A DNA stretch of 64,000 nucleotides from an uncultured Clostridium sp. (GCA_900554365.1 USGY01000005.1:3720-67719), one strand, 5' to 3'; shown: positions 6,704 to 56,131, counted from the stretch's first letter. Notes: generated by a model from the sequence alone, not told the origin. A program made the numbers and translations.

Positions 6704-7204
6704 ATGGAAAGTTTAATAAATAATATAGGAGTAAATCAAATAATTGAAATATTATTAGCGCTATTAGTAGTATTGTTTATTGCATTTATAGCTGTTTTAG
6801 TAAAAACAGTATCATTAGATAAAAAATATAAAAAATTTATGAAAAAACTTGGAGAAAGTGAGAATTTAGAAGAAGACTTAGAAAATTTTATGTATAAAGT
6901 TGAAAGAGTTGAAAAGCAAAATGCTGAAATTCTTGGAAAAATAAATGGTCTTGATAAAGATATAGAAGGCTGCATACAAAAAGTTGGAATTGTAAGATAT
7001 AGTGCATTTCAAGATACGGGAAGTGATTTAAGCTTTACACTTGCATTATTAGACGAAAAAAACAATGGAGTTGTACTAAATGGAATATATTCAAGAGAAA
7101 TGTCAAATATATATGCAAAACCAGTAGAAGCAGGAAAGTCACCTTATACACTTTCTATTGAAGAACAACAAGCAATAAATAAGGCTTTAAATGTGAAAAA
7201 ATAA
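6704..7204 (+). CDS. DUF4446-family membrane protein, typically found downstream of parB in Firmicutes
   Basis: N-terminal TM helix, then VGIVRYSAFQDTGSDLSFTLALLDEKNNGVVLNGIYSR, which matches the DUF4446 pattern. Family assignment is from memory of the motif. Confidence 0.65.
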   Translation: MESLINNIGVNQIIEILLALLVVLFIAFIAVLVKTVSLDKKYKKFMKKLGESENLEEDLENFMYKVERVEKQNAEILGKINGLDKDIEGCIQKVGIVRYSAFQDTGSDLSFTLALLDEKNNGVVLNGIYSREMSNIYAKPVEAGKSPYTLSIEEQQAINKALNVKK

Positions 7205-7243
7205 TATGTTTTAAATAAAAAATAAAAAAAGTATAATTTTATC

Positions 7244-7273
7244 TTGACAATTACTACTTGGTTATGCTAAGAT
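7244..7273 (+). promoter_or_regulatory. Promoter for the tRNA-Ser pair
   Basis: TTGACA (7244-7249), 18-nt spacer, TAAGAT (7268-7273) preceded by TGc (extended -10). It lies about 20 nt upstream of the tRNA 5' end. Confidence 0.55.
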
Positions 7274-7293
7274 AGTAATTGTCTTTACGATAT

Positions 7294-7385
<92 letters not shown>

Positions 7386-7438
7386 AATAAAACCCTGAAG
7401 GATTTATTATATACTTTAGGGCTTTAAATTTAATAGTT

Positions 7439-7528
7439 GTAGGTGTACCCAAGTGGTGAAGGGGGCAGTTTGCTAAACTGCTAGGTCGAGCAATCGGCGC
7501 GGAGGTTCGAACCCTCTCACCTACGCCA
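7439..7528 (+). tRNA. tRNA-Ser (anticodon GCT), CCA encoded
   Basis: Acceptor stem gtaggtg/cacctac, anticodon stem-loop gcagt-ttGCTaa-actgc, long variable arm, T-loop ggttcgaaccc, 3' gcca. Confidence 0.92.
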
Positions 7529-7531
7529 GAA

Positions 7532-7567
7532 AATAATATAAGGTTTATGAACTTATATTATTTTTTT
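7532..7567 (+). terminator. Rho-independent terminator after the tRNA pair
   Basis: aataatataag (7532-7542) pairs with cttatattatt (7552-7562), with a T-run to 7567. Confidence 0.7.
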
Positions 7568-7608
7568 GTTACAAAAGTATTACAATTGTATAAAAAAATA
7601 ATTTTTGT

Positions 7609-7637
7609 TTGAAAAAAAAAATAAAGTATAGTATAAT
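7609..7637 (+). promoter_or_regulatory. Near-consensus promoter in front of pilin paralogue 1
   Basis: TTGAAA (7609-7614), 17-nt spacer, TATAAT (7632-7637). RBS cagggag and ATG 7678 lie downstream. Confidence 0.6.
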
Positions 7638-7677
7638 AATAACGAATAACAAAATTTTGTAAAAACAGGGAGTAAAA

Positions 7678-8052
7678 ATGAGCAAAAAAGCAATAAATAT
7701 TTTAATAATATTAATGTTATTATGTGTTTTGGTGATATTGCCATCAGTAGCATATGCATCAAATGGAACATTTGATGCAAGTACATATCAACCAAGTAGT
7801 ACTACAGATGCAACTGGTGCAAGTAAAATACAAGATTTAGGAAATGTAATAATATCAGTTATAAGGACAGTGGGAACGATAATATCAGTTGCTATTTTAT
7901 CAATAATTGGAATAAAATATATGACAGGTAGTGTAGAGGAAAAAGCTGAATATAAAAAAACAATGTTACCATATGTAATTGGTGCTGTAATTTTATTTGG
8001 AATAACAAGCTTCATAGGTATTATAGTAGATCTTGTAAAAGGTTTAATATAA
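7678..8052 (+). CDS. VirB2/TrbC-like T4SS pilin paralogue 1
   Basis: Signal peptide ending AYA|SNG, two hydrophobic helices separated by the loop GIKYMTGSVEEKAEYKKTMLPYVIGA. Size is 124 aa. This is the topology and motif of Firmicute T4SS pilins. Confidence 0.8.
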   Translation: MSKKAINILIILMLLCVLVILPSVAYASNGTFDASTYQPSSTTDATGASKIQDLGNVIISVIRTVGTIISVAILSIIGIKYMTGSVEEKAEYKKTMLPYVIGAVILFGITSFIGIIVDLVKGLI

Positions 8053-8075
8053 TATACTAAAAGGAGGATGATAAA

Positions 8076-8525
8076 GTGAAAAATAAAATTATTATATATA
8101 TAACTACTGCTATAATATTATTGTTTGTTGGAATATTAATTCCTACAAATAATATATATGCAATGTTTACACCTGGAGGAGGAGTAGGATTTTCAAATGG
8201 TACTAAAAATAGTTCTTCTTCATCAACGCCAGATGATGTAATGAAAGATGCAGATGATTTTATAAAACAAGGGGAAAATACAGCTGATATTGATACAAAC
8301 AAATTACATGATACATCCAACTTTTTATATAATTTACTTTTAGCTTTTGGAATAGTAGTAGCAGTAATTGTTGGAATGGTAATAGGAATAATGTATATGG
8401 TTGGAAGTGTAGAAGAAAAGGCAAATATGAAAAAAGCATTAATAGGATATGCATTAGGATGCTTTGTAGTATTTGGAGCATTTGGAATATGGAAGCTTTC
8501 AATTAATATATTATCAAATGTATAG
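8076..8525 (+). CDS. Divergent VirB2-like T4SS pilin paralogue 2, with a longer Ser/Gly-rich N-terminal region
   Basis: GTG start follows an AGGAGG RBS. It has a signal/TM segment and a C-terminal core GIMYMVGSVEEKANMKKALIGYALG homologous to the other three paralogues. Confidence 0.7.
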   Translation: MKNKIIIYITTAIILLFVGILIPTNNIYAMFTPGGGVGFSNGTKNSSSSSTPDDVMKDADDFIKQGENTADIDTNKLHDTSNFLYNLLLAFGIVVAVIVGMVIGIMYMVGSVEEKANMKKALIGYALGCFVVFGAFGIWKLSINILSNV

Positions 8526-8536
8526 GTAGGTGTATT

Positions 8537-8890
8537 ATGAAGAATATCAAAAAAGTTATAATGAGTGCAATAATTATAATAACTATTTTTTGCCTAGGGG
8601 TTACATCTTATGGATTTTCTGTAGGAGATATGACAGGCAAAGATCCATCTAATGATGCTCAAAATTCAATAAATAATTTAGGACAGGGTGTTATAAAAAT
8701 AATAAGTACAGTTGGTACAATAATATCAGTTGTATTTTTAATTATACTTGGAATAAAATATATGACAGGTAGTGTTGAAGAAAGAGCAAATTATAAAAAA
8801 ACATTATTGCCATATGTAATTGGGGCTAGTATATTGTTTGCTGCATCAACATTAACAAGCATTATTTATAATATTGCAATTAATTTATAA
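8537..8890 (+). CDS. VirB2/TrbC-like T4SS pilin paralogue 3
   Basis: Signal peptide plus the core GIKYMTGSVEERANYKKTLLPYVIGA. About 85% nucleotide identity to paralogue 1 over the core, by eye. Confidence 0.8.
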   Translation: MKNIKKVIMSAIIIITIFCLGVTSYGFSVGDMTGKDPSNDAQNSINNLGQGVIKIISTVGTIISVVFLIILGIKYMTGSVEERANYKKTLLPYVIGASILFAASTLTSIIYNIAINL

Positions 8891-8902
8891 TTGTAGTATA
8901 AT
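8874..8902 (+). promoter_or_regulatory. Dedicated promoter for pilin paralogue 4
   Basis: TTGCAA (8874-8879, inside the end of paralogue 3), 17-nt spacer, TATAAT (8897-8902). Confidence 0.55.
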
Positions 8903-8989
8903 AAATAATAGATTATTATATTGTTATTATAATTCTTTGTGCATACAAAGAGATTTAATATATATTTTATAAAGAAAGGGTGAAAAGTT

Positions 8990-9358
8990 ATGAAAATTAA
9001 TGTAGAAAAAACAACAAAAATAGTTGCCATGATAATATTAGCTATTATGGTAGTAGCTGTTGCATCAACAGTATTTGCGTCAGTAGATCCATCAACATAT
9101 AAAGGTGAATCAAGTGTTAGCACAACAAAGATTGATAGTTTAGGTAATACTATTATAAAAATAGTTAGTACTGTAGGTTCAATTGCATCTGTTCTTGTAT
9201 TAGTTGTTTTAGGTATAAAATACATGATGGGAAGTGCTGAAGAAAAAGCAGAATATAAAAAGACTTTATTACCATACGTAATTGGAGCAGCTTTAGTTTT
9301 CGCAGCATCTGCAATTGCAGGAGTTGTTTACAACTTCGCAAATTCATCTATTGTATAG
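8990..9358 (+). CDS. VirB2/TrbC-like T4SS pilin paralogue 4, candidate major pilin
   Basis: Signal peptide ending FA|SVD and the core GIKYMMGSAEEKAEYKKTLLPYVIGA. It has its own promoter and is followed by a strong terminator. Confidence 0.8.
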   Translation: MKINVEKTTKIVAMIILAIMVVAVASTVFASVDPSTYKGESSVSTTKIDSLGNTIIKIVSTVGSIASVLVLVVLGIKYMMGSAEEKAEYKKTLLPYVIGAALVFAASAIAGVVYNFANSSIV

Positions 9359-9371
9359 TAAGGATAAAAAA

Positions 9372-9407
9372 ATACTGTTTAGTTTTAAAACTAAACAGTA
9401 TTTTTTT
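9372..9407 (+). terminator. Strong rho-independent terminator after pilin 4
   Basis: Perfect 13-bp stem atactgtttagtt / aactaaacagtat with loop ttaa, then a T7 run. Confidence 0.85.
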
Positions 9408-9528
9408 GTAAAATAACAGCTTAATAAAGAAAATATATAAGTTAAAGTTACAGAAATGTTACAGATATATTAAAAACATATTAAAACGTAAAAAAAAGCA
9501 TTAAAATGTCGCTTTTTTCTAGAAAGTT

Positions 9529-9537
9529 TGGTATAAT
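9529..9537 (+). promoter_or_regulatory. Extended -10 element (TGgTATAAT) in front of the T4SS structural operon
   Basis: tggtataat at 9529-9537, about 43 nt upstream of ATG 9580. No good -35 element was found. Confidence 0.4.
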
Positions 9538-9579
9538 ATATATGATAAAATAATTGTGTCAAAAAAGGAGGAAATTTAA

Positions 9580-9930
9580 ATGCAAACATATGAAATTCCA
9601 AGGAATTATAAAGGTGAGGGTAGAATATTGTATGTTTTCTCAACAAAAGCTTTAGGGTATACAGCAGCAGCAGCAGCTTTTGGAGGAATATTTTATCTTA
9701 TTTTTAAGGTATTAGGACTGCAAATGATAGGAATAGGAATTGTAGTATTTTTGGGTTTAATTGGATTTTGCATAGGTACATTTAAAATTCCTGATAATAG
9801 AAAATTCAAATTTACAGAAAAAACAGGTGGAGAAGCCATTGATGATGTGATAAAAAGATGGATAAAATTTAAAAGAGGAAAAAAGAAGATATATGTATAT
9901 CTAAAGGAGGAAACAAAAGATGAGCAATGA
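9580..9930 (+). CDS. PrgI/TcpE-type (VirB3-like) small T4SS membrane protein
   Basis: 116 aa. Two adjacent TM helices follow the N-terminal YEIPRNYKGEGRILYVFSTKAL. It lies directly upstream of the VirB4 region, the usual VirB3-VirB4 order. It ends with TGA (9928-9930), overlapping the next gene's start. Confidence 0.65.
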   Translation: MQTYEIPRNYKGEGRILYVFSTKALGYTAAAAAFGGIFYLIFKVLGLQMIGIGIVVFLGLIGFCIGTFKIPDNRKFKFTEKTGGEAIDDVIKRWIKFKRGKKKIYVYLKEETKDEQ

Positions 9931-11146
9931 TGGAATAACAAGTTTATTATCTGCAATATTAATAATAATGGTGAGTATACTGTTTGTGTTAATAATAGTT
10001 TATATTATATTAAGAGCTAAAACTAAAAAAGCAGAAAATTCAAATGGTGAAGAAATGTTGGCAGGAACCAAAAGACAAAAAACTATTCAACCCAAAACTG
10101 TAAATAATACATATTCAAAGCAATCAATATTTTCTTTTATGGAATTTGATAAAATTGAAGATAATATGATTGTAAGAGAAAAGGGAAAAAAATTCTTAAT
10201 GGTTGTTGAATGCCAAGGAATAAATTATGATTTAATGTCCGGAATTGAAAAAAACAGTGTTGAACAAGGATTTCTACAATTTTTAAATACTTTAAGATAT
10301 CCAGTTCAAATATATGTGCAAACAAGAACTGTTAACCTTGAAAGTGGAATTATAAAATATAAAGAAAGAATAAATAACATAAAGGACAGACTAATAAAAA
10401 AACAATTAGAATATACAAAAAAGGAAGCCTTAGGGGTTAGCGAGAAAGAACTAAATGAAGCTAAACTAGAATTAACAAGAGAACAGAACTTATATGAATA
10501 TGGCTCAGATTTAGTAAGTAATACAGAAAGAATGAGTTTGAATAAAAATATTTTAAGAAAACACTATTATGTAATTATAGATTATATGCCAGAAGATATA
10601 AATAATGGAAACTATGGTAGCGAAGAAATTACAAGTATGGCATTTTCAGAATTATATACTAAAGCTCAATCAATAATAAGTTCATTAAGTGTTTGTGGAG
10701 TAAATGGAAAAATATTAGATTCTAAGCAATTAGCTGAATTATTATATGTTGCATATAATAGAGATGAAGCAGAAGTATATGAATTAGATAAAGCATTAGA
10801 TGCAGGATATGATGATTTATATTCAACAGCACCAAATGTATTACAAAAGAGAATGAAAGAATTAGACAAAAAGATAGAAGAAGATGCTCAAAAATTAGTA
10901 AATCAAAAATTAAAAGAAGCTATTTGGGATTCAGAAGAAGAAAAAAGAGTAAAACAAAAAGAAGCACAAATGGATGAATTAATAAATCAAATGGCTCAAG
11001 TAATTATAGAAGAAAACCAAGATATGGTTGGAAAAAATATTGCTGATAGAGCAATAAAGAAAATAAAAGAAGATGGAAATACAAAGGAGGGAAAAGATGA
11101 AAAAGAACAAAAAACAACAAGAGGAAGAAGAAAGAAGATACAATAG
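9920..11146 (+). CDS. T4SS-associated membrane-anchored coiled-coil protein of unknown function
   Basis: AAGGAGG RBS precedes ATG 9920. It has one N-terminal TM helix followed by a K/E-rich, probably coiled-coil region. It is translationally coupled on both sides. No family was recognised with confidence. Confidence 0.6.
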   Translation: MSNDGITSLLSAILIIMVSILFVLIIVYIILRAKTKKAENSNGEEMLAGTKRQKTIQPKTVNNTYSKQSIFSFMEFDKIEDNMIVREKGKKFLMVVECQGINYDLMSGIEKNSVEQGFLQFLNTLRYPVQIYVQTRTVNLESGIIKYKERINNIKDRLIKKQLEYTKKEALGVSEKELNEAKLELTREQNLYEYGSDLVSNTERMSLNKNILRKHYYVIIDYMPEDINNGNYGSEEITSMAFSELYTKAQSIISSLSVCGVNGKILDSKQLAELLYVAYNRDEAEVYELDKALDAGYDDLYSTAPNVLQKRMKELDKKIEEDAQKLVNQKLKEAIWDSEEEKRVKQKEAQMDELINQMAQVIIEENQDMVGKNIADRAIKKIKEDGNTKEGKDEKEQKTTRGRRKKIQ

Positions 11147-13052
11147 TGAGGAAGATATAAGCATTTTAAAAAAAGCAACATTAAAAGATTTAATTGCACC
11201 ATCAGGAATTGATGCTTCAAATATTGACCATATGGAAATTATATCTAATACAAAAAGATATGCAAGAAGTTTCTTTGTTTCAACTCTTCCTAGAATGTGT
11301 ACTTTCCCAGAATTGTTTAGGGATATGTATCTTTTCGGCGATATAAATACATCGATTTATATCACACCAATAAAAGAAGACAGATCACAAAATGATTTAA
11401 ACAGAGTTATTAATGAATTGGAAACAGAGAGAATTGTTGCAGCAGATAGAGGAAATATAAACAGACAAAGTACAATTACTCAAAAAAGATTGGAAGCAGA
11501 ACAATTAAGAGATGAAATTGCAGCAGGATTTAACAAATTATTTGAAGCAACAGTTGTATCAACATTATTTACATATAATTTAGAGGATTTAGACAGATAT
11601 ACAAAAATGTTAGCTGCAGAAATGTCAAAAACTTTAGTTGGAATAAAGAGTGCATGGGGTATACAAGAAGAAGCGTTTCAATCCAATTTACCTTTAATGA
11701 ATAATAAAATAAATAAATCACATACATTTGATAGAAATTCAATGGGAACAGTATTCCCATTTACAACATCAGAAATAGGACATCCAACGGGAGTTCCGAT
11801 TGGATTTAACAAGCAAACTGGAACACCAATATTATTTGATAATTTTGCAAGTTCATTAACAAATTATAATATGGTTATTTTTGCTAAATCTGGTGCCGGT
11901 AAATCTGTTACAATGAAAACATTGGTTTCAAGATCTTCAGTACTTTCTGGAATCGAAAGTTTGGCACTAGATGCTGAAGGTGAATATACAGTTGTTGCTG
12001 AAAGTCTTGGCGGAATAAATGTTGTAATAAGCCCAACATCAAAAACAATTATAAATATCTTTGATATTGAAACAGAAACAATTAAAGATGAAATCACGGG
12101 AAAAGATAGAGTTGTTTTAAATGTTGAAAACAAGGTTGAAGACGTAACTCAAGGTTTACTTACAATGTCAAGAGGTAGTACAAGAAGTACAGAAGTTAAT
12201 GAGTTAACAAAACAAATTATAGCAGAAACAGTTGCAGAAGAATATGCAGCACTTGGTATTACAAGCAATCCAAATAGTTTATATGAAAAAGATTCAGCAA
12301 TGGTTTCAAGAGGAGAAATACTTGCAAAGAAGAAAAAGCCAATGCCAACAATAGGCAGCTGGTATAGAAGATTACAAGCAAAAGCAAAAGATAACAAAAA
12401 CCCAGATTATCAATATCATTATAGTTATTTACTTAAGGTTATGAAACAATACATAAGAGAATATGATGGACAAATGGCATATTTTGATGGACAATCTACA
12501 TTTGAATTATTAGAGGGAGCTCCCTTTATAAATCTTGATATTTCTCAACTAGAAGAAAGATTTGCAAGACCACTTGCTCAACAAATTTTACTTTCTTGGA
12601 TTTGGGAAAAGTTTGTTAAGAAAAATAGTGAAGATAAAACAAGAGCAGCTAAAAAAAGAGTACTAGTTGATGAGGCATGGATGTTACTTCCATATCCAGA
12701 AGCCGTAGATTTTTTAAATAAAATGGCAAGACGTGCAAGAAAAAGAAATGTATCTTTGGCAATTATTTCACAGAGATTCCAAGATTTCTATGAAAAGCCA
12801 GAAGCACAAGCTGTTTTAACATCTTCTGACACCAAGTTGTTCTTAGCACAAGATAAATCAGAAATTCAATACTTGAAGGAAGTATTTAAACTTTCAGATG
12901 GTGAAGCTAATTTCTTAGTTACATGCCAAAGAGGAGAAGGATTATTTAAGGTTGGAGCAGATACAGCAATCTTAAAAATTACACCAACGAGAAAAGAGTT
13001 TGAGTTTGTTGAAACAAACTTAAACCAATTAGCGAAAAGAAAAAATAACTAA
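11097..13052 (+). CDS. virB4: VirB4-family T4SS ATPase (PrgJ/TraE/TrsE type)
   Basis: Walker A FAKSGAGKSVTMK and Walker B KRVLVDEAWMLL are present. The N-terminal region LIAPSGID...RYARSFFVSTLPRMCTFPELF is typical of Gram-positive VirB4. ATG 11097 follows AGGAGGG. The longest ORF starts at 11073. Confidence 0.9.
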   Translation: MKKNKKQQEEEERRYNSEEDISILKKATLKDLIAPSGIDASNIDHMEIISNTKRYARSFFVSTLPRMCTFPELFRDMYLFGDINTSIYITPIKEDRSQNDLNRVINELETERIVAADRGNINRQSTITQKRLEAEQLRDEIAAGFNKLFEATVVSTLFTYNLEDLDRYTKMLAAEMSKTLVGIKSAWGIQEEAFQSNLPLMNNKINKSHTFDRNSMGTVFPFTTSEIGHPTGVPIGFNKQTGTPILFDNFASSLTNYNMVIFAKSGAGKSVTMKTLVSRSSVLSGIESLALDAEGEYTVVAESLGGINVVISPTSKTIINIFDIETETIKDEITGKDRVVLNVENKVEDVTQGLLTMSRGSTRSTEVNELTKQIIAETVAEEYAALGITSNPNSLYEKDSAMVSRGEILAKKKKPMPTIGSWYRRLQAKAKDNKNPDYQYHYSYLLKVMKQYIREYDGQMAYFDGQSTFELLEGAPFINLDISQLEERFARPLAQQILLSWIWEKFVKKNSEDKTRAAKKRVLVDEAWMLLPYPEAVDFLNKMARRARKRNVSLAIISQRFQDFYEKPEAQAVLTSSDTKLFLAQDKSEIQYLKEVFKLSDGEANFLVTCQRGEGLFKVGADTAILKITPTRKEFEFVETNLNQLAKRKNN

Positions 13053-13066
13053 TGGAGGATAACTTT

Positions 13067-16000
13067 ATGAAATTTTTTATGAATAAAAGCATATGGTCTA
13101 AAATTGCTATACTTTTAATAATTGTATTGCTGTTTCAATTTGTAGTAACTAAACCGACATTGGCGAAAGCAGAAGTTGGAGATACAAGAATAGATTTTGG
13201 AGGAAAATTATTATCACCAGTAATGTCATTAGTTGTATCATTAGCTGATGCCATGATGGATATGATGCATTCATCCATAATGGGAACAAATGAATCGCTA
13301 TTGCCCGTTGATGTAGATAGTAAATGGTGGGAGATATTATCCAAGGTATTAGTTATTGGCGCAATAGTAGCAGCAGCAATTTTCGTAACAATAGCTACTT
13401 TTGGAGCAGCAGCTACTGTAGGTGCGGTAATAGGTGCTATTGGAACTGCATTGTGGACAGCATTAGGTGCAGGAGTAGCTAGTATAGGAGCTTATTTTGT
13501 TTTAGATAATGCTTTTGATCAGCTTAAAATTAAAGGTAAAGCAAGTGCTGTATCTTATACTGATGATATTGAATTACCGAGAACACTATATTTACCAGCT
13601 TATACATTAAGCCCAGAAGAAATTTTTGAAGGAAAAATTTTGTTATTTAATGTAGATTTCTTTGGAAAGCCAAAAGAAATAAAAAAAGCTGAAACAACGA
13701 CAGAAGATGGTAATAAAACTGTAAATTATTATTATTATTTGAAAGATACTAATAAAGCTGATACAGAAGATAATAGAGTAAAAACTTCTAACCAAGATGT
13801 TGCAGCTGATTTACAAGGTAATATATCAAAATGGTATGTACAAATAAGAAATATAGTATTGGTATGTATGATGATAGTGCTTTTGTATATTGGTATAAGA
13901 ATATTATTAACATCATTAGCAGGTGAAAAAGCTAAATATAAGCAATTTTTGCAAGATTGGTTTGTAGGATTAATTTTAATATTTTTTATGCATTATATTA
14001 TGACTTTTGCAGTAACGATAGTTCAAAAAATAACGGATATTGTAGATACAAGTGTTGATTCCAATACATATGTTGTAAAATTCCCAGTAGATAAGGATGG
14101 AAAAATAGTTAAATTCTTTAATAATAATAAAATGGCTTATATGATATATGATAAGAATGGAAAGCAAATTACAAGTGATGAAAACGGAAAAGTAAAAGAA
14201 GGAGACGCAGCTTATGTAGTATATCCAACTAATGTCTTGGGATCATTAAGATTAACCCTTCAATTACAAAGTTGGGGTGCAGGTTATATAGGATATGCTT
14301 TAGCATTTGTAGTTCTAGTCTTGTTTACAGTATTTTTTATATTTACATATTTAAGAAGGGTATTATATATGGCTTTTCTAACATTAATTGCACCAGTTGT
14401 AGCATTAACATACCCAATAGATAAAATGAATGATGGTAGTGCACAAGGATTTACTAAATGGTTTAGAGAGTATATATTTAATTTACTAATTCAACCAATG
14501 CACTTAATGTTATATTACATTTTAGTAACTTCAGCATTTGATTTAGCAGGAAAAAATATAATTTATACATTAGTAGCAATTGGATTTATGATGCCAGCAG
14601 AAAAATTATTGAGAAGCTTCTTTGGATTTGAAAAAGCTCATACACCTGGACTTCTTGCAGGACCTGCAGGAGCAGCTTTAACAATGCAAGGACTTCAAAC
14701 ATTATCTAATTTAAGAAGTGGAAAAAGTAAAAGTAAAGAAAGTAGCAAAGGTAATGCTAAACCACAAGTACGACAAGCTAATAATTCAAATAGACTTTTG
14801 AATAAATTAGATGGAGATGTAAATCCAACAAGTGAAATGGCATCATTAGTTGGAAATGCTGAAGAAGGTAAAGCTGCAGGAGCTGTTAATGGAAAAGTAG
14901 GAATAAATGATAGTCAATTAGGAATAGATAAAGATCAAGCAGCATTAGATGCAATGAAGGATAATGACTTAAATGGTGAGCAAAATGCATTAAATGATAT
15001 GATGTTAGAAGACGGAATTGTAACTGCTGGTGAAGTAGGAGCATTAGATAATGACCAAAAGGCAATAGATAATTTAAGAGATGAAATGGGAGATGATCCT
15101 GAAGCAAAGGCATATTTGGCCGAACAACAAGAAGATATAAATAAGAGAAGATTGGAATTAGCAAGAAGAGCTGGATTAGAAGAAGAACAAGCAAATGTAA
15201 GTCAAAATAGAATATATCAACAACCACTTCTTGATGCTGAACAAGATGAAATAAATAAAAGAAAAGCAGAATTATCAAGTGATAGTATTCCAACTGAAAA
15301 AATTGATCCTATTCAACAACAAAGAGAAGCAGTTATTAGAGATGCACAAGCAGAGGCAGCTGAAAAGATTTCACAAGATAGAGCAGAAATTCCAAAAATC
15401 AAGAGAGTTCAGTCTGCAGTTATGAGAGGTGCAATGAAAGCACCGAAAGTTATTGGTGGTGCATCAAGAGTAGCTGGAAGATATTTTGCTACTGGAGCAG
15501 GAGTTGCGTTGGGTGCTGCAGCTGGAATTGCGACAGGAAATCCAAAACAAATGCTTACATATATGGGAGTAGGTGCTGCGACAGGAAATAAAATTGGAGC
15601 AGTATCAGGTGAAAATATTTCAAATAATTTACAAAGTGCAGGACAAGTAATTAGTGATAAATATAATAAAATGCTTGATAAGGATGACGCATTAAGACAA
15701 ATAGAACTAGAAAAAGAAGTAAAAGCTCAAAGAAAAGAATATGTATCAGCTATGAAAGAAAGTGGATTTTCTAAAGATGAAACTAAAGAAATGGTGGACA
15801 AAGGAATAATAGATAGATATATTAAGAATAATGTAAATTCACAAGATGCAGTAGTATCAGAACAAATGAGAAGAGATGATCCAAAGATATCACAAGAACA
15901 AGCAATTGCGACAGCTAAGTATGCAAAAAGAGTTGGAGAAGCTTCTAAAGGACCAGAAAGAAAGAAATGGCAAGAACATTTTGCTGGTGAGTTTAAAGAT

Positions 16001-16096
16001 AAAGCTAACTTAAATCAAGAACAAGCAAATGTAGCAGCCGAACAAACATTAAAGAGGGTAGATGCATTTAATAAATATAAGAAAAAATTAAATTAA
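13067..16096 (+). CDS. VirB6/TcpH-like polytopic T4SS membrane protein with a long hydrophilic C-terminal extension
   Basis: About 1010 aa. It has an N-terminal signal/TM segment and multiple TM helices in the first ~540 aa. The remaining ~470 aa are charged, Q/E/A/K-rich sequence. Its position after virB4 matches the Firmicute T4SS order. The alternative start ATG 13052 overlaps the virB4 stop. Confidence 0.7.
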   Translation: MKFFMNKSIWSKIAILLIIVLLFQFVVTKPTLAKAEVGDTRIDFGGKLLSPVMSLVVSLADAMMDMMHSSIMGTNESLLPVDVDSKWWEILSKVLVIGAIVAAAIFVTIATFGAAATVGAVIGAIGTALWTALGAGVASIGAYFVLDNAFDQLKIKGKASAVSYTDDIELPRTLYLPAYTLSPEEIFEGKILLFNVDFFGKPKEIKKAETTTEDGNKTVNYYYYLKDTNKADTEDNRVKTSNQDVAADLQGNISKWYVQIRNIVLVCMMIVLLYIGIRILLTSLAGEKAKYKQFLQDWFVGLILIFFMHYIMTFAVTIVQKITDIVDTSVDSNTYVVKFPVDKDGKIVKFFNNNKMAYMIYDKNGKQITSDENGKVKEGDAAYVVYPTNVLGSLRLTLQLQSWGAGYIGYALAFVVLVLFTVFFIFTYLRRVLYMAFLTLIAPVVALTYPIDKMNDGSAQGFTKWFREYIFNLLIQPMHLMLYYILVTSAFDLAGKNIIYTLVAIGFMMPAEKLLRSFFGFEKAHTPGLLAGPAGAALTMQGLQTLSNLRSGKSKSKESSKGNAKPQVRQANNSNRLLNKLDGDVNPTSEMASLVGNAEEGKAAGAVNGKVGINDSQLGIDKDQAALDAMKDNDLNGEQNALNDMMLEDGIVTAGEVGALDNDQKAIDNLRDEMGDDPEAKAYLAEQQEDINKRRLELARRAGLEEEQANVSQNRIYQQPLLDAEQDEINKRKAELSSDSIPTEKIDPIQQQREAVIRDAQAEAAEKISQDRAEIPKIKRVQSAVMRGAMKAPKVIGGASRVAGRYFATGAGVALGAAAGIATGNPKQMLTYMGVGAATGNKIGAVSGENISNNLQSAGQVISDKYNKMLDKDDALRQIELEKEVKAQRKEYVSAMKESGFSKDETKEMVDKGIIDRYIKNNVNSQDAVVSEQMRRDDPKISQEQAIATAKYAKRVGEASKGPERKKWQEHFAGEFKDKANLNQEQANVAAEQTLKRVDAFNKYKKKLN

Positions 16097-16114: not shown

Positions 16115-17080
16115 ATGCATAATCTAATAAGATTTTATAATCAAAATAGAAAGGCAATTTGGATAGGCATTGGAATTATTGCCTCTCTATTTATATTACT
16201 TCAACTTCTTAATTTTATCGCTAAAAAAAATAATAATAAAATAACAGATTCAAATTATTCAAATTTAGTGCAAGAACATAAAATTCAAAGTGATTCAAAA
16301 GGAAATATAGCAACAGATAAATCAGTGGTAACTGGAGATAAGCTATCTTCTGAATCACTAAAAGATCAAACAAGTGTTATAGAGCAATTTTTAAATTTAT
16401 GTAAAAATAACAATGATGAAGAAGCATATAATATGATTACAGATGAATGTAAAGAAGAGATGTTTAATACTGTAGAAGATTTTAAAAATATATATTTAGA
16501 TTCAATTTTTAAAACAAAAGGCGTTACATTTAAAATATCAAATTGGTTTGGAAATACATATAAAGTTGATTTTACAGTTGGAGATATGTTATCAACAGGA
16601 AATCCAGATGATGTTGAAAACATACAAGATTATATAACTATAAAATCAGAAAATAATGAAACAAAAGTAAATATTAATAAGTATGTAGGAAGATATGAAG
16701 TAAATAGAGAAAAAGAAGACAATAATATAAAAATTTCAGTTATATCAAAAAATATATATATGGACTATGAAAAATATAAAATAAAAGTAGAAAATAATAC
16801 AGATAATGATATTTTACTAGATGAAAGAAAAAATATAAATACAATGTATATTCAGGATGAAAAAGATGTTAAGCATGCAGCCTATACACAAGAATTAACA
16901 ACTCCTGATTTAACTGTTAACAATCATGGTGCAAGAACACTTACAGTTAAATATTATAGTGCATATACTTCAAGCAAAAAAATAGATAAACTAGTATTTT
17001 CAGATGTGGTTTTAAATTATAGTCAAGATTTAGACAATGTATTAAATCCACAAATTGGAGAAATATCAATAAATTTATAA
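16115..17080 (+). CDS. Bitopic T4SS-associated protein, a candidate VirB8/TcpC-type scaffold (unverified)
   Basis: One N-terminal TM helix (AIWIGIGIIASLFILLQLLNFIA) followed by a ~280-aa extracytoplasmic domain. It sits between the VirB6-like and hydrolase genes. The functional call rests only on topology, size and gene order. Confidence 0.45.
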   Translation: MHNLIRFYNQNRKAIWIGIGIIASLFILLQLLNFIAKKNNNKITDSNYSNLVQEHKIQSDSKGNIATDKSVVTGDKLSSESLKDQTSVIEQFLNLCKNNNDEEAYNMITDECKEEMFNTVEDFKNIYLDSIFKTKGVTFKISNWFGNTYKVDFTVGDMLSTGNPDDVENIQDYITIKSENNETKVNINKYVGRYEVNREKEDNNIKISVISKNIYMDYEKYKIKVENNTDNDILLDERKNINTMYIQDEKDVKHAAYTQELTTPDLTVNNHGARTLTVKYYSAYTSSKKIDKLVFSDVVLNYSQDLDNVLNPQIGEISINL

Positions 17081-17091
17081 AAGGAGAAAAA

Positions 17092-20000
17092 ATGAACAAT
17101 AATTCTGAAGCAGTAAGACAAGCAATTAAAAAAGTTGCAAAAAAAGTTGGTAAAGTAGTTTCTAAAATAATGTTTATTCCATTAGTAATTTTTTCTATTA
17201 TAATTATATTGTTAGGCGCGTGTGTATATTTTATAACAGTTGATGATGGGACTTATAAAGAAGGAGATTGGAAAAGTACAGGATATGGTGCAGCAGTATA
17301 TAAATCTGAAGCTAAGGTAAATTCTGATGGTTCAATATCTGCAGGAAAAACAGCTAAAGAAATATGGGATGAATTAAGAAAAAATGGTAGTAGTGTAACA
17401 GATTATTTAAGTGGACCTAAGGCTTTAGCAAAGTTAATGAATGCAGAATTAGTAACTTCTTTTCCAGATACACGTTCTAATCCAGATGAAAAAATAGACT
17501 GGGATAAGGTGGATTTGTTAGGAGATAAATTACAAGGAATAATTAAATTCAAGCGTGGAGATAAAGATGGAAAAACATATACAATGTCATATGTAGATGA
17601 AACAACATTTAGTGGATGGATGGAATGCTATAATTTAACAGGGAGTGAAGAAGCTAAGAAAAATGTATTAAGCCATTTTACAATAGTAAGTGGTGATACA
17701 AGTAGTTCTTCTAATGGTAGTTTGAAAGTTAACCTTTCTAAAGATCAGGTTACAGATGCTTCACAAAAAATATTAGATGCAATTCCTAAAGTGCCATCAC
17801 CCGGACAGGGATATTGTTTGGGATGGGTTAATAAAGTATATCAAGCAGCTGGTGTTGGTTCTCTTAATCAAATAGGAGCATATCAAGCTTTTCAAGCTAC
17901 GCATGTTTCAACAGATAGAAATAATATTCCTGTAGGTGCAGCTGTATATTGTACGGGATCTCAATCAGCAGGAATTTATGGACATGTTGGAATATATGTT
18001 GGTGACAACAAAGTTATGGATAATATTGGATATATTAGGACAATTGATTTAGACAAATGGATAAAAGAAGCTGAAACTTCTGGTAATACCCAATGCGGTG
18101 GAAAACCTGGATGGCTAGGATGGGGCTGGTGGACTGGAGGTTCACCAACTGTAACAGGAACTGGAAGTAGTACAAGTAGTGATGAAACAAAAGATAATTC
18201 TAATACAGATAAAAATACAACAAAAAAAGTTGAAGATGGAAAAATTGAAACCAAAGGAAAATCTTATAGTGTAAAAGTAGCAACATGGAATTCAACAACT
18301 ACAAAAGTTGAATCTAATGATCCAGCTGTAAAAGGATATACGACAACACAATATAACATGACAGCTACAACAATAAATTATCAAGATTTAGTATCTAAAT
18401 ATACTATGCCATTTAATTTATTATATGCGTTTTTAGTAGTTGGAGAAAGTGAAGATTTTGTTTCAGAATTAGCAGATTTAGTATATAATAGTGATATTGA
18501 AATCACTGTATATGATAATTATACTAAAAATACTGATGTAGATAAGTGGACATATACGCGAGTGGTAGAAGACGATGTTAATGCAACTGCAATCTTGGGA
18601 GATAAGATGAAGAGCACCAGTTTTACGAATAAAACTAGTAATCAATATACAACAACAAAGACGGTTATAACAGAAACTAATACATTGGATGTTAAAGTAA
18701 GTAAAGCTAATGTATGGATTGTGGATTATGAGTCAAATGTTGAATATCAATCCAATAAACCAAACAGTACATCATCAGATAATGGACAAGATGATCAAAA
18801 GAAACCTTCTAAAAAAACAACAGTTGGACCAGTATATAATTATAATGCAAAAGAAATTGATGAATTGGAAAAGCAAGTTTTAGATGAAGCGAATGGTGAG
18901 AGTAATGAATATAAGAAATCTGATGTGAAGACGTCTTCATTTTATGATAGATATAAATGGATAACAGATATAAATGATAATGTAACAAATACAACGGAGT
19001 CATCTTCATATACATCAAAACCTGGTACAGTAAAAGAGAAAACAGATCGTAAATCAAAAGATCCTAATTTTGTTACAATATATAATAAAAATAAATATGA
19101 AAGAAATGCTTCTAATATTGAAACTGCTGCATCATGGTTATTTGAAATAATTCAGATAAATCAGGATACAACAGATATGTTAGATTTAATAAAATATTTA
19201 TTATATAAGGCAACGGGGATAAGTTATGGAGTAACAGAATTTGATTTTAGTATTTTTGATCCTTCTAATTTTCAAAAGGTAACAACAGGTTCAGAGGGAG
19301 GATTATCATTAAATACGACAATGTTTACAAAAGATGTATTTAAAAAGGCATTAGAATCTTATTACAATAAGACACACAATCAAGCCTTTTATAATAATTT
19401 TGTATTAAAAGCAGATGAGATTTATGATGCGTCAGTAAGAAATAATGTTAATCCTGAGTTAGTTGTAGTAACCGCAGGAACAGAACAAGGATGGAAACAA
19501 GGAGGAGGAGCTTATAATTATTGGGGAATAGGAGTATATAATGGCTCTAATGTTGGACAAAGTTTTAGTAGTATGTCTGATGGAATAGCAGCATTTGCTA
19601 ATATTATAAAAAAATATTCTCCAGGTGGATCTATGGCTAATCTGATAATGCAAAGATACGAGGAAAGAAAAAATTCGGGTTGTGATCCTACAGGATATGG
19701 TATGCCAGGAACTTTGAGTGGATGGCAATCAGTATATTCTTCTTTAGGATATCATGTAACAGGAAGTGCAGGGGCAGGTGGATATTATTACATGGATCCT
19801 GGTGTAGCAGGAGTAACTAAAATATATAAAACACATAGTGAGTTTTTACAAAAATGTTATAATGTAGGTGGAGCACATGCGTATGGAACTATAACAACAG
19901 CATGGGAACAAGGGCAATATACTGCATATCAACTTGAACAAAAATTAAATTTATGGAATGCTATTTTTGGAGACTTCGGAACTTTAAGCTCAACATCAAC

Positions 20001-20352
20001 GGATGGAACTGGAAAAGGAGCTCAAGTCGTTGCAGAAGCAAGAAAACAAATTGGAAAACCATATGTATGGGGAGCTGCAGGGCCAAATAGTTTTGATTGT
20101 TCTGGTTTAACAATGTGGTGTTATAACAAAATTGGAATAAAAATATCTCATAATGACAGATGTCAAAAAGCTGAAGCTAAAAAAGTTGTTCCTGTATCAC
20201 AAGCAAGAGTAGGAGATATCTTATGGAAAGATGGACATGTTGGAATCTACATAGGAAATAATCAATATATACATGCACCAACTCCTGGACAAACAGTAAC
20301 AATAGCCAATGGAGCAAATTCGATGTTTGTAAATGCATTACAATTCTTTTAA
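17092..20352 (+). CDS. T4SS peptidoglycan hydrolase (PrgK/TcpG-like) with three putative hydrolase modules
   Basis: N-terminal TM helix. A CHAP/NlpC-like Cys...His module (QGYCLGWVNKVY...GHVGIYVGDN, roughly nt 17764-18067). A glucosaminidase/lysozyme-like segment (VVVTAGTEQGWKQGGGAYNYWGIGV, roughly nt 19300-19700). A classic C-terminal NlpC/P60 domain (GKPYVWGAAGPNSFDCSGLTMWCY...GHVGIYIGNNQYIHAP). Confidence 0.85.
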   Translation: MNNNSEAVRQAIKKVAKKVGKVVSKIMFIPLVIFSIIIILLGACVYFITVDDGTYKEGDWKSTGYGAAVYKSEAKVNSDGSISAGKTAKEIWDELRKNGSSVTDYLSGPKALAKLMNAELVTSFPDTRSNPDEKIDWDKVDLLGDKLQGIIKFKRGDKDGKTYTMSYVDETTFSGWMECYNLTGSEEAKKNVLSHFTIVSGDTSSSSNGSLKVNLSKDQVTDASQKILDAIPKVPSPGQGYCLGWVNKVYQAAGVGSLNQIGAYQAFQATHVSTDRNNIPVGAAVYCTGSQSAGIYGHVGIYVGDNKVMDNIGYIRTIDLDKWIKEAETSGNTQCGGKPGWLGWGWWTGGSPTVTGTGSSTSSDETKDNSNTDKNTTKKVEDGKIETKGKSYSVKVATWNSTTTKVESNDPAVKGYTTTQYNMTATTINYQDLVSKYTMPFNLLYAFLVVGESEDFVSELADLVYNSDIEITVYDNYTKNTDVDKWTYTRVVEDDVNATAILGDKMKSTSFTNKTSNQYTTTKTVITETNTLDVKVSKANVWIVDYESNVEYQSNKPNSTSSDNGQDDQKKPSKKTTVGPVYNYNAKEIDELEKQVLDEANGESNEYKKSDVKTSSFYDRYKWITDINDNVTNTTESSSYTSKPGTVKEKTDRKSKDPNFVTIYNKNKYERNASNIETAASWLFEIIQINQDTTDMLDLIKYLLYKATGISYGVTEFDFSIFDPSNFQKVTTGSEGGLSLNTTMFTKDVFKKALESYYNKTHNQAFYNNFVLKADEIYDASVRNNVNPELVVVTAGTEQGWKQGGGAYNYWGIGVYNGSNVGQSFSSMSDGIAAFANIIKKYSPGGSMANLIMQRYEERKNSGCDPTGYGMPGTLSGWQSVYSSLGYHVTGSAGAGGYYYMDPGVAGVTKIYKTHSEFLQKCYNVGGAHAYGTITTAWEQGQYTAYQLEQKLNLWNAIFGDFGTLSSTSTDGTGKGAQVVAEARKQIGKPYVWGAAGPNSFDCSGLTMWCYNKIGIKISHNDRCQKAEAKKVVPVSQARVGDILWKDGHVGIYIGNNQYIHAPTPGQTVTIANGANSMFVNALQFF

Positions 20353-20371
20353 TATGTAGGGAGGATATAGA

Positions 20372-21121
20372 ATGAAAAAGATAATGATAAGTATTTGTAT
20401 AACTATTTGTGTAATATTATTAATATTATTGATAATTATGTTTAATAATAAAAATTCTCAACATAGGACTAATAATGTAGAAACAAATGGTGATAGCAAA
20501 AATATTACATATACTACAGAAAAATTGAGAGATGCTACAAAATTTTATGCAATTGAAAAATGTATTCAAGAAAATAAAGACCAAAATTTTGTTGCAAAAG
20601 AAATGAATGTATTAGATGAATATGAATTTACTAGTTATGCTGTTTATGGAAAAAGTAATAATGCTGATAAATATTATATAGTTAGAACAGATTTATCAAG
20701 TGATGCATTTAGAATTGAAGATGTAAATGTAAGTAATATAGATAGTATTGATTTAAAGACTAATTTAAAAGAAATAAAAGATGATGGTAATAATAAGATT
20801 AATTATAGTACCATTACACCTAATGATATGGGAGAAAGATATTTACAAGAATTTCTAAATTTAGAAATATCAAATCCTGAAGAGGCATATAAATTATTGG
20901 ATGAAAATAGTAAGAAAAATAAATTTTCAACTTTGGATGACTACAAAGATTATATAAAAAATAATTTGGATAAAATAAAAAATGAGAGTTTTAAAACTTG
21001 CAATTATGAATATGATGATGATTATACTATGTATTGGATAGAAACAACTGAAAATAATATGTATACATTTAAAGAAAATAGTATAGAAAATTATACAGTA
21101 CTAATAACAGAATTAAATTAA
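20372..21121 (+). CDS. Bitopic membrane-anchored protein, short paralogue of the next gene; unknown function
   Basis: N-terminal TM helix. Shared blocks with the 21139 gene: FYAIEKCIQE vs FYTIENCIKK, and YLQEFLNLEISNPEEAYKLLDENSKKNKFSTLDDYKDYI vs YFQEFKELVINKPEEAYDKLDVNYRNKRFGSLDEFENYI. Confidence 0.6.
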   Translation: MKKIMISICITICVILLILLIIMFNNKNSQHRTNNVETNGDSKNITYTTEKLRDATKFYAIEKCIQENKDQNFVAKEMNVLDEYEFTSYAVYGKSNNADKYYIVRTDLSSDAFRIEDVNVSNIDSIDLKTNLKEIKDDGNNKINYSTITPNDMGERYLQEFLNLEISNPEEAYKLLDENSKKNKFSTLDDYKDYIKNNLDKIKNESFKTCNYEYDDDYTMYWIETTENNMYTFKENSIENYTVLITELN

Positions 21122-21138
21122 TAAAGTGGAGATATAAT

Positions 21139-22509
21139 ATGTCAAAAATGAAAAAAATAATTATTGTTGCAATTATTATTATATTAATAATAATTGCTGC
21201 AATAATAGGATATATGGTGACTAACCAAAAGAAAGATTTGGTAGATAAAGATAATAATAATGTAAATACTACCCCAAATAATAATATAGTTGAAAATAAT
21301 GTTCAAACAGTTAAAGACAGTGCTTTATTTTATACAATAGAAAATTGTATAAAAAAATATGAAGGATATGTAAATACAAATTATGAAAAACAAGTTGATG
21401 AAAGAAATCTTCCATCATTAGCTGCATCATATGGATTTTCAACTCAAGAAGATAAAAATAGTGCTATAATGAATTTTTTAGATCAAGATTATATTAAAGA
21501 AAATAATATAAATAAAAATAATTTAAATAATTTTATTGAAGAAACTAATAATGAAGATATTATAGTTACAGCATTAAAAATAAATAAATTGGAAAGTGAT
21601 AATTCTGAAGTAAATTCTTATAGTGTATATGCTAAAAAAAGTGATGGGGACAATGAAAAAAATATATATTATATTATAAAATTGGATGAAAGTAATGAAG
21701 CATTTTGCATTTATCCATTGAATAAAGATTATAAAAATATCGATGAAATAAATGTAAAAAATCAAACTAAAAACATTGAAAAAAATAATCAAAATGCTAT
21801 TATACAAAGCGATGTAAGTGATGCTGAGATTACAACTAAATATTTTCAAGAATTTAAGGAGCTAGTAATAAATAAGCCAGAAGAAGCTTATGATAAGTTG
21901 GATGTAAACTATAGAAATAAAAGGTTTGGTAGTTTAGATGAATTTGAAAATTATATAAATGCAAACATAGATGATATCGAATTATCACAAATTTTAAAAT
22001 ATTTAAAAGAAGAAAATGATAATTATAATGAATATGTAGCAAAAGATAGATATGAAAATTTATATATTTTTGATGAAGAATCACCAAATAATTATACTGT
22101 AAAATTAGATACATATACAATTGTTACGGATAAATTTAAAAGTGAATATAGCCAATCTGAAGAAGAAAGAAAAGTTCAATTACAATTAGATGTGTTTAGA
22201 CAAATGATAAATAATCAAGATTTTAAATCTGCATATAATGTATTAGCGGATGGATTTAAAAATAACTATTTTAAGACACAAGATAGTTTTGAAGAATATA
22301 TGAGAAAACATGCATTTAAATATAATAAGATAAATTTTGAAGATATTAATCAACAAGGTAATTTGTATGTATGTAAAGCCAATTTTACAGATTTAAGTGA
22401 AGGAAATTATGAAGATGAAAGTAAAAAAGATGTTAATCAATATGATTGGACATTTATAGTACAACTAAATGATGCTGAAAATTTTAAATTATCATTTAGT
22501 ATTGAATAA
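21139..22509 (+). CDS. Bitopic membrane-anchored protein, long paralogue of the previous gene; unknown function
   Basis: N-terminal TM helix and an N/K/D/E-rich extracytoplasmic region. It shares motifs with the 20372 gene. It is the last gene of the tightly packed operon. Confidence 0.6.
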   Translation: MSKMKKIIIVAIIIILIIIAAIIGYMVTNQKKDLVDKDNNNVNTTPNNNIVENNVQTVKDSALFYTIENCIKKYEGYVNTNYEKQVDERNLPSLAASYGFSTQEDKNSAIMNFLDQDYIKENNINKNNLNNFIEETNNEDIIVTALKINKLESDNSEVNSYSVYAKKSDGDNEKNIYYIIKLDESNEAFCIYPLNKDYKNIDEINVKNQTKNIEKNNQNAIIQSDVSDAEITTKYFQEFKELVINKPEEAYDKLDVNYRNKRFGSLDEFENYINANIDDIELSQILKYLKEENDNYNEYVAKDRYENLYIFDEESPNNYTVKLDTYTIVTDKFKSEYSQSEEERKVQLQLDVFRQMINNQDFKSAYNVLADGFKNNYFKTQDSFEEYMRKHAFKYNKINFEDINQQGNLYVCKANFTDLSEGNYEDESKKDVNQYDWTFIVQLNDAENFKLSFSIE

Positions 22510-24893: not shown

Positions 24894-25011
24894 TTATAAA
24901 CTCCTTAATTATTTTTTTACATATCAAAATAAATATAACACAAAAATCAAATTGCTTCAAGTATATGAACAATAAATATGTTTTAATCATATTTTATAAT
25001 GGGTGATTATT

Positions 25012-56118: not shown

Positions 56119-56131
56119 GGAGGAATTGCGA

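Follow-up and report, generated by a model that had tools for sequence, protein, structure and literature searches.

Tandem VirB2-family pilin genes in a probable chromosomal type IV secretion locus of uncultured gut Clostridia

The present analysis concerns a 64,000-nucleotide (nt) stretch of DNA from an uncultured Clostridium sp. (GCA_900554365.1, USGY01000005.1:3720-67719), hereafter the window, in which four adjacent genes, termed P1 to P4 and lying between positions 7678 and 9358, stand upstream of a type IV secretion system (T4SS) gene cluster. Taken as a whole, the explanation we favour, and hold to be probable, is that P1-P4 encode VirB2-family pilin subunits of a monoderm-type T4SS or pilus machine, and that the locus is chromosomal and passed on by vertical inheritance within a large clade of uncultured gut Clostridia whose genomes are small and low in GC. 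This explanation draws on the family membership and gene context of the four products, on the conservation and class structure of the array across relatives and on conserved transcription signals. Among monoderms a VirB2 pilin array has so far been described only in Patescibacteria and is now found in a clade of Clostridia; a Bacillota clade with VirB2 arrays in a T4SS conserved like housekeeping genes contradicts recent reviews (PMC12857230, PMC12102498). In their architecture the arrays clearly point to one major pilin accompanied by several minor ones, and their regulatory signals are conserved.

Family assignment of the four pilin-like products

All four genes lie on the plus strand, namely P1 at 7678-8052 (124 aa), P2 at 8076-8525 (149 aa), P3 at 8537-8890 (117 aa) and P4 at 8990-9358 (122 aa), and they represent the first (F), middle (M), third (T) and last (L) positional classes, respectively. 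The four open reading frames (ORFs) are intact and each has a ribosome-binding site; the start codon of P2 is GTG, behind AAAGGAGG. The original prediction, drawn from the sequence of the window without database searches, had placed four VirB2-type pilin genes of these lengths here, each with a signal segment, two hydrophobic helices and a shared loop, and the genes were found exactly where it had put them.

The Pfam gathering cutoffs are 26.6 bits for PF18895 (T4SS_pilin) and 27.9 bits for PF04956 (TrbC/VirB2). The former was passed by all four products (P1 27.8, P2 29.3, P3 39.4 and P4 39.5 bits) and the latter by P1, P3 and P4 (36, 37.8 and 44.4 bits), with P2 falling 2.7 bits short of it at 25.2 bits; the E-values ranged from 1e-6 to 2e-11. 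The VirB2-type identity that had been predicted was thereby upheld, and placement in an unrelated family did not occur. Among the 223 ORFs of at least 40 aa in the window, matches to the pilin profile were confined to P1-P4 and a VirB6-like protein, and homologues of VirB3, VirB4 and VirB6 are encoded beside the array, as expected for VirB2/TrbC pilins. The Mbov_0395 pilin-like family was the best NCBIfam match of P1-P4 and was rejected as an assignment, its scores of 17-33 bits lying below the cutoff of 40.

Alignment of the four products revealed 17 invariant columns, centred on G-I-x-Y-M-x-G-S-x-E-E-x-A-x-x-K-K and followed by Y-x-x-G-x-x-x-x-F. By hydropathy, each product has an N-terminal hydrophobic signal-like segment that ends in an AxA-like site, where cleavage is predicted, and two more hydrophobic segments; the signal segment and the two hydrophobic helices with a short charged loop are the hallmark of VirB2/TrbC. 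An AlphaFold2 model of P4 (61 homologues; mean predicted local distance difference test score, pLDDT, 79) consists of a helix at residues 5-25 and a hairpin of helices 46-80 and 83-121, and conservation reaches at least 90% at A30, which is predicted to occupy the -1 position of the cleavage site.

The predicted mature N-termini had been described as unrelated to each other. They are indeed very divergent, but not wholly unrelated, for P1 (FDASTYQPSS) and P4 (VDPSTYKGES) have D-x-S-T-Y in common, and the N-terminal extension of P2, about 50 aa long, carries a class-conserved GADDFIxxGK-type motif and is not only of low complexity; the C-terminal helix of P2 reads GCxVVFGAFGIWK. On profile hidden Markov models, topology and gene context, P1-P4 are assigned to the VirB2 family.

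Arrays and positional classes in related species

Relatives were collected by a VirB4 scan with one genome per species, which found 462, and the comparisons given here use the best 80 species-level loci. These best 80 of the 462 all come from metagenome-assembled genomes (MAGs) of uncultured gut Clostridia (human, sheep, rabbit, chicken and mouse) and include one closed 1.70-Mb chromosome. When pilin genes were counted upstream of prgI with a profile of P1-P4, 43 loci had three and 25 had four, 4 loci had one or two, and 2 had five or six; the counts rest on our own ORF calling in MAG contigs, where fused or elongated genes may cause miscounts. Arrays of three or four pilins are the norm in the clade.

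Clustering of the core region splits off the M class first. This deepest-branching class, which includes P2, holds 70 genes among about 74 loci and occupies nearly always one array position, the middle gene of three-gene arrays or the second gene of four-gene arrays. When each gene was matched to its nearest neighbour, 60 of 68 F, 59 of 67 M and 64 of 68 L genes paired with a gene of their own positional class from another species, the labels fitting unusual arrays only imperfectly. The nearest relatives of P1 are the first-position genes of other species, and 68 out of 73 loci have an orthologue of P4 as their last gene, the L class being the most conserved of all. Each of these classes has motifs of its own, namely NPddYKP in F, GADDFIxxGK and GCxVVFGAFGIWK in M, and d-P-s just after the predicted cleavage site in L (VDPSTY in P4). 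Judged from these alignments, the paralogues are old positional orthologue classes, which is in keeping with the suggestion of the original prediction that a major pilin is accompanied by minor ones.

The T class, to which P3 belongs, is seen only in four-gene arrays. T and L genes share 65% core identity when taken from one locus and 51% when taken from different loci, and for six of the 25 T genes the closest relative is the L gene found in the same locus; by this comparison P3 is a younger copy derived from the L (P4) class. In some species (our loci L067, L052, L066, L072, L065, L075 and L061; first or second pilin gene) M-class members bear N-terminal domains of 200-250 aa, which fit a displayed, specialised minor subunit. 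As observations in their own right, other pilins (L042, L034, L036 and L041) are extended at the C-terminus, the extensions of L041, L042 and L034 being Cys-rich and zinc-ribbon-like, and L041 also contains two pilin hairpins fused in one 242-aa ORF.

Promoters, terminator and codon usage

As read from the DNA and its conservation, three promoters define three transcription units. The P1-P2-P3 unit is headed by a promoter-like site, TTGAAA-N17-TATAAT, at 7609-7637 (+), which agrees with the consensus at 11 of 12 positions, and both of its blocks, TTGAAA and (G)TATAAT, are kept ahead of the first pilin gene in most aligned relatives. P4 has a promoter of its own at 8874-8902 (+), TTGCAA-N17-TATAAT (10 of 12 consensus positions), whose -35 element lies within the last codons of P3. 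This promoter had been proposed from the window itself and proved to be conserved, its hexamers being invariant in 16 species-level loci, 65-87 nt ahead of the ATG, with the rest of the spacer divergent. The promoter region of the machinery operon, at 9506-9537 (+), was recognised by sequence and footprinting and includes an extended -10 element, TGgTATAAT, at 9529-9537; TGnTATAAT upstream of the prgI-like gene is kept in 14 of 15 aligned loci.

Alignment and RNAalifold delineate, in the 5' untranslated region (5'-UTR) of P4, a conserved block at 8922-8952 (+) that consists of GTTATTAxAA and a small stem-loop in which 8933-8939 pairs with 8946-8952. Three of its seven pairs have compensatory changes across species, and its energy is weak (-4.35 kcal/mol by RNAalifold); this hairpin is a possible stabiliser of the messenger RNA. 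An Rfam scan of 7200-9700 returned only two tRNAs at gathering scores. A 22-nt imperfect palindrome (8861-8909, 86% complementary) was also observed from the end of P3 through the -35 and -10 elements of the P4 promoter. It was considered as an operator and set aside, its left arm being conserved coding sequence for the C-terminus of P3, and it may be coincidental.

Downstream of P4 lies an intrinsic terminator at 9366-9407 (+), made of an A-tract, a perfect hairpin with 21-nt arms and a T-tract (dG -22.3 kcal/mol, z -6.5). A perfect 13-bp terminator had been reported at 9372-9407; perfection holds, and the arms are longer than was stated. Behind the last pilin gene, 99% of 71 loci have a hairpin of -10 kcal/mol or lower (median -15.4), as compared with 8% of 171 sites after other pilin genes and 21% of 213 random sites, and such a hairpin with a T-rich 3' side occurs at 48 of 71, 1 of 171 and 2 of 213 of these sites, respectively. 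The stem sequences after the last pilin gene are unrelated between loci, so it is structure and not sequence that is conserved there. Together with the conserved promoter, these hairpins strongly support the earlier proposal that P4 is a separate unit. The median gap is 72 nt before the last pilin gene, 19 nt at the other gaps and 193 nt from the last pilin gene to prgI.

Codon usage was followed through the C-ending NNY codons (Tyr, Phe, Asn, His, Asp). They make up 6 of 14 (43%) in P4 and 3 of 70 in P1-P3 (0-7%), the window median being 9% and the maximum among 48 other genes 24%; across 68 species their share is 26% in the L class and 12-15% in the other classes. A preference for NNC marks highly expressed genes, these amino acids being read by tRNAs with GNN anticodons; the direction of the preference is taken from general knowledge, the window having no ribosomal-protein genes for calibration. 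The conserved promoter, the hairpin after the last gene, the 72-nt gap, the codon bias and the standing of L as the most conserved class make P4 the probable major subunit. P1 is probably a minor pilin and P2 probably a specialised minor pilin.

Sequence variation within and between species

A four-gene array could alternatively be a device for surface variation, with paralogues swapped, converted or alternately expressed after the models of trwL in Bartonella Trw and virB2 in Anaplasma, and variation of the exposed part had been one of the two possibilities raised by the original prediction. Variation of this kind was not seen within the species. Array DNA is 99.1-100% identical in eight contigs, and array protein is 96.8-100% identical in five further assemblies, a bovine sample and the MAG GCA_934120555.1 among them. 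The independent assemblies number more than 12 in all, human and bovine samples included, and form a sample partly selected through identical or near-identical P4, hence biased toward similarity. The few differences lie mostly in signal peptides, and alignment across strains for mosaicism or copy-number change disclosed no cassette-type variation. Every copy is moreover intact and preceded by a ribosome-binding site, neither silent cassettes nor invertible elements came to light, and the division of the copies into ancient positional orthologues with class-specific motifs likewise speaks against such a device.

What lends the idea some substance is the behaviour of the N-termini, whose divergence from species to species far outpaces that of the core: where VirB4 is 91% identical (L009 and L020), the cores are conserved and the N-terminal segments largely replaced. 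The resemblance of P1 to P3 is a second point in its favour. The identity of about 85% that had been estimated by eye for 7907-7985 against 8748-8826 was measured at 87%, with 75% over 198 nt and 83% over 141 nt. Identical codons at identical core residues amount to 32 of 43 for P1-P3, 17 of 39 for P1-P4 and 22 of 43 for P3-P4, with synonymous identity of P1 and P3 in excess along some 140 nt. At 51-76% identity, the P1-P3 pair of L009 and L020 is without this signal; the corresponding stretch of the window pair is 78-84% identical. Gene conversion between P1 and P3, to which the earlier reading had pointed, is thus left with a modest, weak signal that is absent from the L009 and L020 pair. 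The frequent closeness of T genes to the L gene of their own locus can be cited on the same side. On balance we judge a surface-variation role improbable and retain the reading of P1-P4 as one major and several minor pilins.

A core chromosomal system or a mobile element

Across the 80 loci, identity to the window is 79-91% for VirB4, 79-86% for MnmG, 79-90% for ParA and 62-85% for ParB, which places the ATPase at the conservation level of housekeeping proteins. Unlike the ATPase, the VirB6-like protein, the hydrolase and the anchored proteins are only 23-57% identical across loci and are evolving fast. The left border of the locus is formed by tRNA-Ser (tga) and tRNA-Ser (gct) at 7294-7528 (+; ARAGORN, Rfam). 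Upstream of this pair lie mnmE, mnmG, rsmG, parA, parB and a DUF4446 gene (Pfam), the usual origin-proximal set, and a longer contig from the same species has yidC and jag upstream as well. The left flank is common to about 35 of the 80 loci, often beside parB and tRNA-Ser, and the right flank (dnaJ, patatin) to five. Closed or near-closed contigs of the clade, at 1.5-1.7 Mb, suggest small genomes.

The locus begins directly after the two tRNA-Ser genes, its VirB4 and type IV coupling protein (T4CP) are of the CD1110/CD1115 families typical of integrative and conjugative elements (ICEs), and related plasmids have the same gene order; one might thus regard it as an ordinary ICE inserted at tRNA-Ser, whose extra pilin copies are incidental duplications. 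Yet neither relaxase families nor an integrase were matched in the 64-kb window (all ORFs from 100 aa upward, apart from six antisense ones that lie inside larger ORFs), and no downstream copy of the tRNA-Ser 3' ends, as an att-like repeat, was found there. The GC content of the locus equals that of its flanks, both flanks are shared with other species, VirB4 conservation is at housekeeping level over the 80 species, and the T4CP lies 32 kb off, inside a conserved housekeeping neighbourhood. We consider an ICE very improbable, the least probable of the alternatives weighed here.

Two hallmarks of conjugative T4SSs, the VirB4 ATPase and VirD4/T4CP, are present here. The locus is nonetheless not placed in the conjugative-element class, because relaxase and mobility features were looked for and not found in the window. 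The framing of the original prediction, which had set the array against typical conjugative gene clusters, calls for correction here, as the locus behaves like a chromosomal system that is inherited vertically.

Proposed mechanism and division of labour

By analogy with the solved VirB2, TraA, Ced and Ted pili, the precursors would be inserted by Sec and cut by signal peptidase I after the AxA-like site (in P4 after VFA30), and the product would be a membrane-embedded hairpin of two helices whose charged EEKAxYKK turn faces the cytoplasm. Subunits would then be pulled out of the membrane by the VirB4 ATPase together with the VirB6-like platform and joined into a polymer, a filament or a conduit, that crosses the cell wall, with the short, fast-evolving, Ser/Thr-rich N-termini on the outer surface. 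P4 would be the bulk subunit, whose own promoter, 5'-UTR stem-loop and strong terminator could allow a large excess over the machinery. P1, P2 and P3, co-transcribed from a separate promoter, would serve as minor pilins with distinct, non-redundant roles (nucleation, tip or adaptor), the class of P2 carrying a variable displayed extension. The expression levels, polymerisation and surface exposure of the pilins, like the cargo or function of the machine, are inferred.

The four products may instead be VirB2 homologues of a system that has no extended pilus, in which they would be membrane or channel components of the translocon, or a short stalk. VirB2 is needed for substrate transfer even in pilus-free systems (PMC12857230), and the pilin-like hairpin within the VirB6-like protein suggests intramembrane packing of pilin and VirB6. 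The own promoter, terminator and codon bias of P4 nevertheless imply a stoichiometry far above that of the machinery, which a polymer fits better than a channel part, and the fast-evolving N-termini and the 200-250-aa extensions of the M class suggest extracellular exposure. A system without a pilus thus seems unlikely to us, though less so than the other two alternatives.

Several observations weigh against the explanation favoured here, in addition to the reservations on array counts and codon calibration made above. The Pfam scores of P1-P4 are modest, at 25-44 bits. When the P4 model was compared with the Protein Data Bank (PDB) by Foldseek, the best match had an E-value of 1.1 and no pilin was among the matches, short helical hairpins being poor Foldseek queries; this lack of a structural match to solved pili also favours a system without a pilus. 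A profile of the pilin alignment gave 0 matches to PDB sequences at E-values up to 10. With no PDB match by sequence or Foldseek, structural membership of the family comes down to topology. No VirB5-like tip protein was identified, and a 2025 review treats a pilus on a Gram-positive T4SS as no more than a possibility, raised by the pilin array of Patescibacteria (PMC12857230).

Comparison with known systems

According to a 2025 review, VirB2 and VirB5 are not found in Gram-positive T4SSs except in recently described systems of Patescibacteria, where epibiotic growth requires an array of six divergent VirB2-like pilins (PMC12857230). A survey of Patescibacteria reported arrays of 2-11 pilin genes with a mean identity of 25% and a maximum of 54%, most clusters having no relaxase and proximity to the origin being frequent (PMC12102498). 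The resemblance of the present locus to these systems (Southlakia epibionticum ML1, TM7x; PMC12102498, PMC12857230) extends to a monoderm host, a VirB3, VirB4, VirB6 and VirD4 core like that of mating-pair-formation class FATA (MPF-FATA), tandem divergent VirB2-like pilins (2-11 genes there, 3-4 at 30-51% identity here), the lack of a relaxase in the cluster, a position often close to the origin and small-genome uncultured lineages. Set against the description in PMC12102498, the window thus has a chromosomal cluster, a divergent tandem VirB2-like array and origin proximity, and no relaxase. The differences are that the host here is a spore-forming member of the Clostridia (SpoIIR, YpeB and GerM in the window), that a cell-wall hydrolase is present, whereas most clusters of the candidate phyla radiation lack VirB1, and that the T4CP is unlinked from the cluster. 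The locus probably functions in the same way as these systems.

The closest plasmid system is that of Clostridium botulinum p12/29, with the same order of pilin-like, PrgI-like, TraC-like, VirB4, VirB6-like and hydrolase genes and a VirB4 that is 43% identical. It differs in being plasmid-borne, not chromosomal, and in having a single pilin-like gene, which was found through the VirB4 neighbourhood and the profile; a tblastn search of P4 against 72,556 plasmids gave no match. T4SSs of Clostridia plasmids and ICEs with one T4SS_pilin gene are represented by the NCBIfam families CD1110 (VirB4) and CD1115 (VirD4). The rule that one pilin gene is usual in conjugative clusters therefore holds outside the clade.

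Tandem variable VirB2 paralogues in a T4SS thought to be non-conjugative are also known from Bartonella Trw (multiple trwL/virB2 and trwJ/virB5) and Anaplasma virB2. Those hosts are diderm, VirB5 is amplified there too and Trw has no T4CP; the variation in Bartonella and Anaplasma is linked to host-cell binding and immune evasion, whereas the classes described here are ancient and stable within the species. Within NCBIfam, the pilins, the VirB6-like protein and VirB4 all had their best matches in the Mycoplasma ICE module (Mbov_0395/MMCAP2_0565 pilin-like, MMCAP2_0566 VirB6-like and Mbov_0397 VirB4), but all scores were below the family cutoffs, and by the NCBIfam family names that module is a mobile ICE.

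The archaeal Ced and Ted systems for DNA import are similar in having VirB2-like pilins and in being chromosomal, non-conjugative, T4SS-derived machines of monoderms. Matches of CedB and CedD to the VirB4 part were marginal (19-24 bits against cutoffs of 600-700), and the present locus differs in its VirD4-type coupling protein. A coupling protein of this type argues for export rather than import.

No paper describing the present locus was found in a literature search. One on a TANB77 'conserved pilin' (PMC11680825) was considered and dismissed, as it concerns a Tad (type IVc) pilus cluster, which is another machine.

We put forward only tentatively, as an idea more apt to fail than to hold, that this clade of at least 80 species-level lineages with reduced genomes, which may be the TANB77-like group, has domesticated a conjugation-type T4SS as origin-proximal core machinery and builds a multi-pilin VirB2 pilus for obligatory contact or exchange with other cells, as epibiotic Patescibacteria do. 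If this were true, classical Gram-positive bacteria would possess pilus-forming T4SSs, and the difficulty of cultivating these abundant gut organisms could stem from a dependence on partner cells. The locus suggests that small-genome gut Clostridia rely on cell-cell contact, and it offers a test of whether monoderm T4SSs build pili. The lineages are found in gut MAGs from human, bovine, rabbit, sheep, chicken and mouse, and P4 could serve as an abundant surface antigen or marker.

T4SS machinery and neighbouring genes

The GC content of the window is 26.8%. The first machinery gene after the array, at 9580-9930 (+), encodes a PrgI/VirB3-like membrane protein (PF12666 PrgI, E 1.2e-4, 23 bits, below the cutoff of 27) that is present in all related loci at 48-77% identity. 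VirB4 follows as two overlapping ORFs at 9920-13052 (+; Pfam, NCBIfam): a TraC-like N-part at 9920-11146 (+; PF26593), of 408 aa with one transmembrane (TM) segment, and an ATPase part at 11073-13052 (+; P-loop_TraG, AAA_10, DUF87), of 659 aa with the Walker A motif AKSGAGKS. The match of VirB4 to NCBIfam CD1110, at E 1e-61, reached 209 bits against a cutoff of 325, so no equivalog is assigned. All 80 relatives and the C. botulinum plasmid likewise have VirB4 split into two ORFs. In L089 (5108-6369), a metagenome contig that comes from the same species, the VirB4 ATPase gene was called as two pieces of 241 aa and at least 393 aa, which may reflect a frameshift or an assembly error.

The VirB6-like polytopic membrane protein (1014 aa; 13052-16096, +; NCBIfam MMCAP2_0566, pLS20_p028) is the only other product that matched the pilin profile. 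Its residues from about 243 to 326 align to the profile, loop motif included (E 1e-6 over the 223 window ORFs), such that its IVLLYIGIRILLTSLAGEKAKYKQFLQDWFVGLILIF aligns with GIKYMxGSxEEKAEYKKTLLPYVIGAxLVF of the pilins. The same residues are matched by NCBIfam pLS20_p028 and MMCAP2_0566, and a pilin-profile match within the VirB6-like protein recurs in the loci of about 40 related species. To judge by this alignment, the built-in pilin-like hairpin may template pilin docking.

Further downstream, at 16115-22509 (+), are encoded four putative membrane-anchored extracellular components of 321, 1086, 249 and 456 aa, each with one N-terminal TM segment. The 1086-aa product is an NlpC/P60 cell-wall hydrolase in the role of VirB1 (Pfam NLPC_P60, 97.9 bits). 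All four are fast-evolving, at 23-50% identity, and their gene order is syntenic in relatives. The 249-aa and 456-aa proteins (20372-22509) gave overlapping tblastn matches in relatives, as if they were paralogous, with no family match and 23-40% identity between species. A gene for another polytopic membrane protein comes after the anchored proteins.

The VirD4-like T4CP (674 aa; 56385-58409, +; PF02534, 275 bits) lies 32 kb from the T4SS cluster, among ddl, a cbpA-like dnaJ, sbcD, an SbcC-like AAA_23/27 gene and prfA. It is the last gene of a conserved three-gene unit at 55603-58409 (+), in which it is preceded by small ORFs of 171 aa and 86 aa; the unit is 73-82% identical in other species and stands there again beside dnaJ/cbpA and prfA. 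SpoIIR, YpeB, a SleB-like hydrolase and GerM are also encoded in the window and place the organism among spore-forming Firmicutes.

At the right border, Pfam identified a DnaJ-domain protein at 24171-24893 (-) and a patatin-like phospholipase at 25003-25872, a pair that follows the T4SS cluster in five other species as well. Just past this border, at 25924-30267 (-), a 1447-aa BcrAD/BadFG + DUF2229 protein of the CoA-enzyme-activase type is encoded, whose NNC codon fraction of 23% is among the highest in the window.

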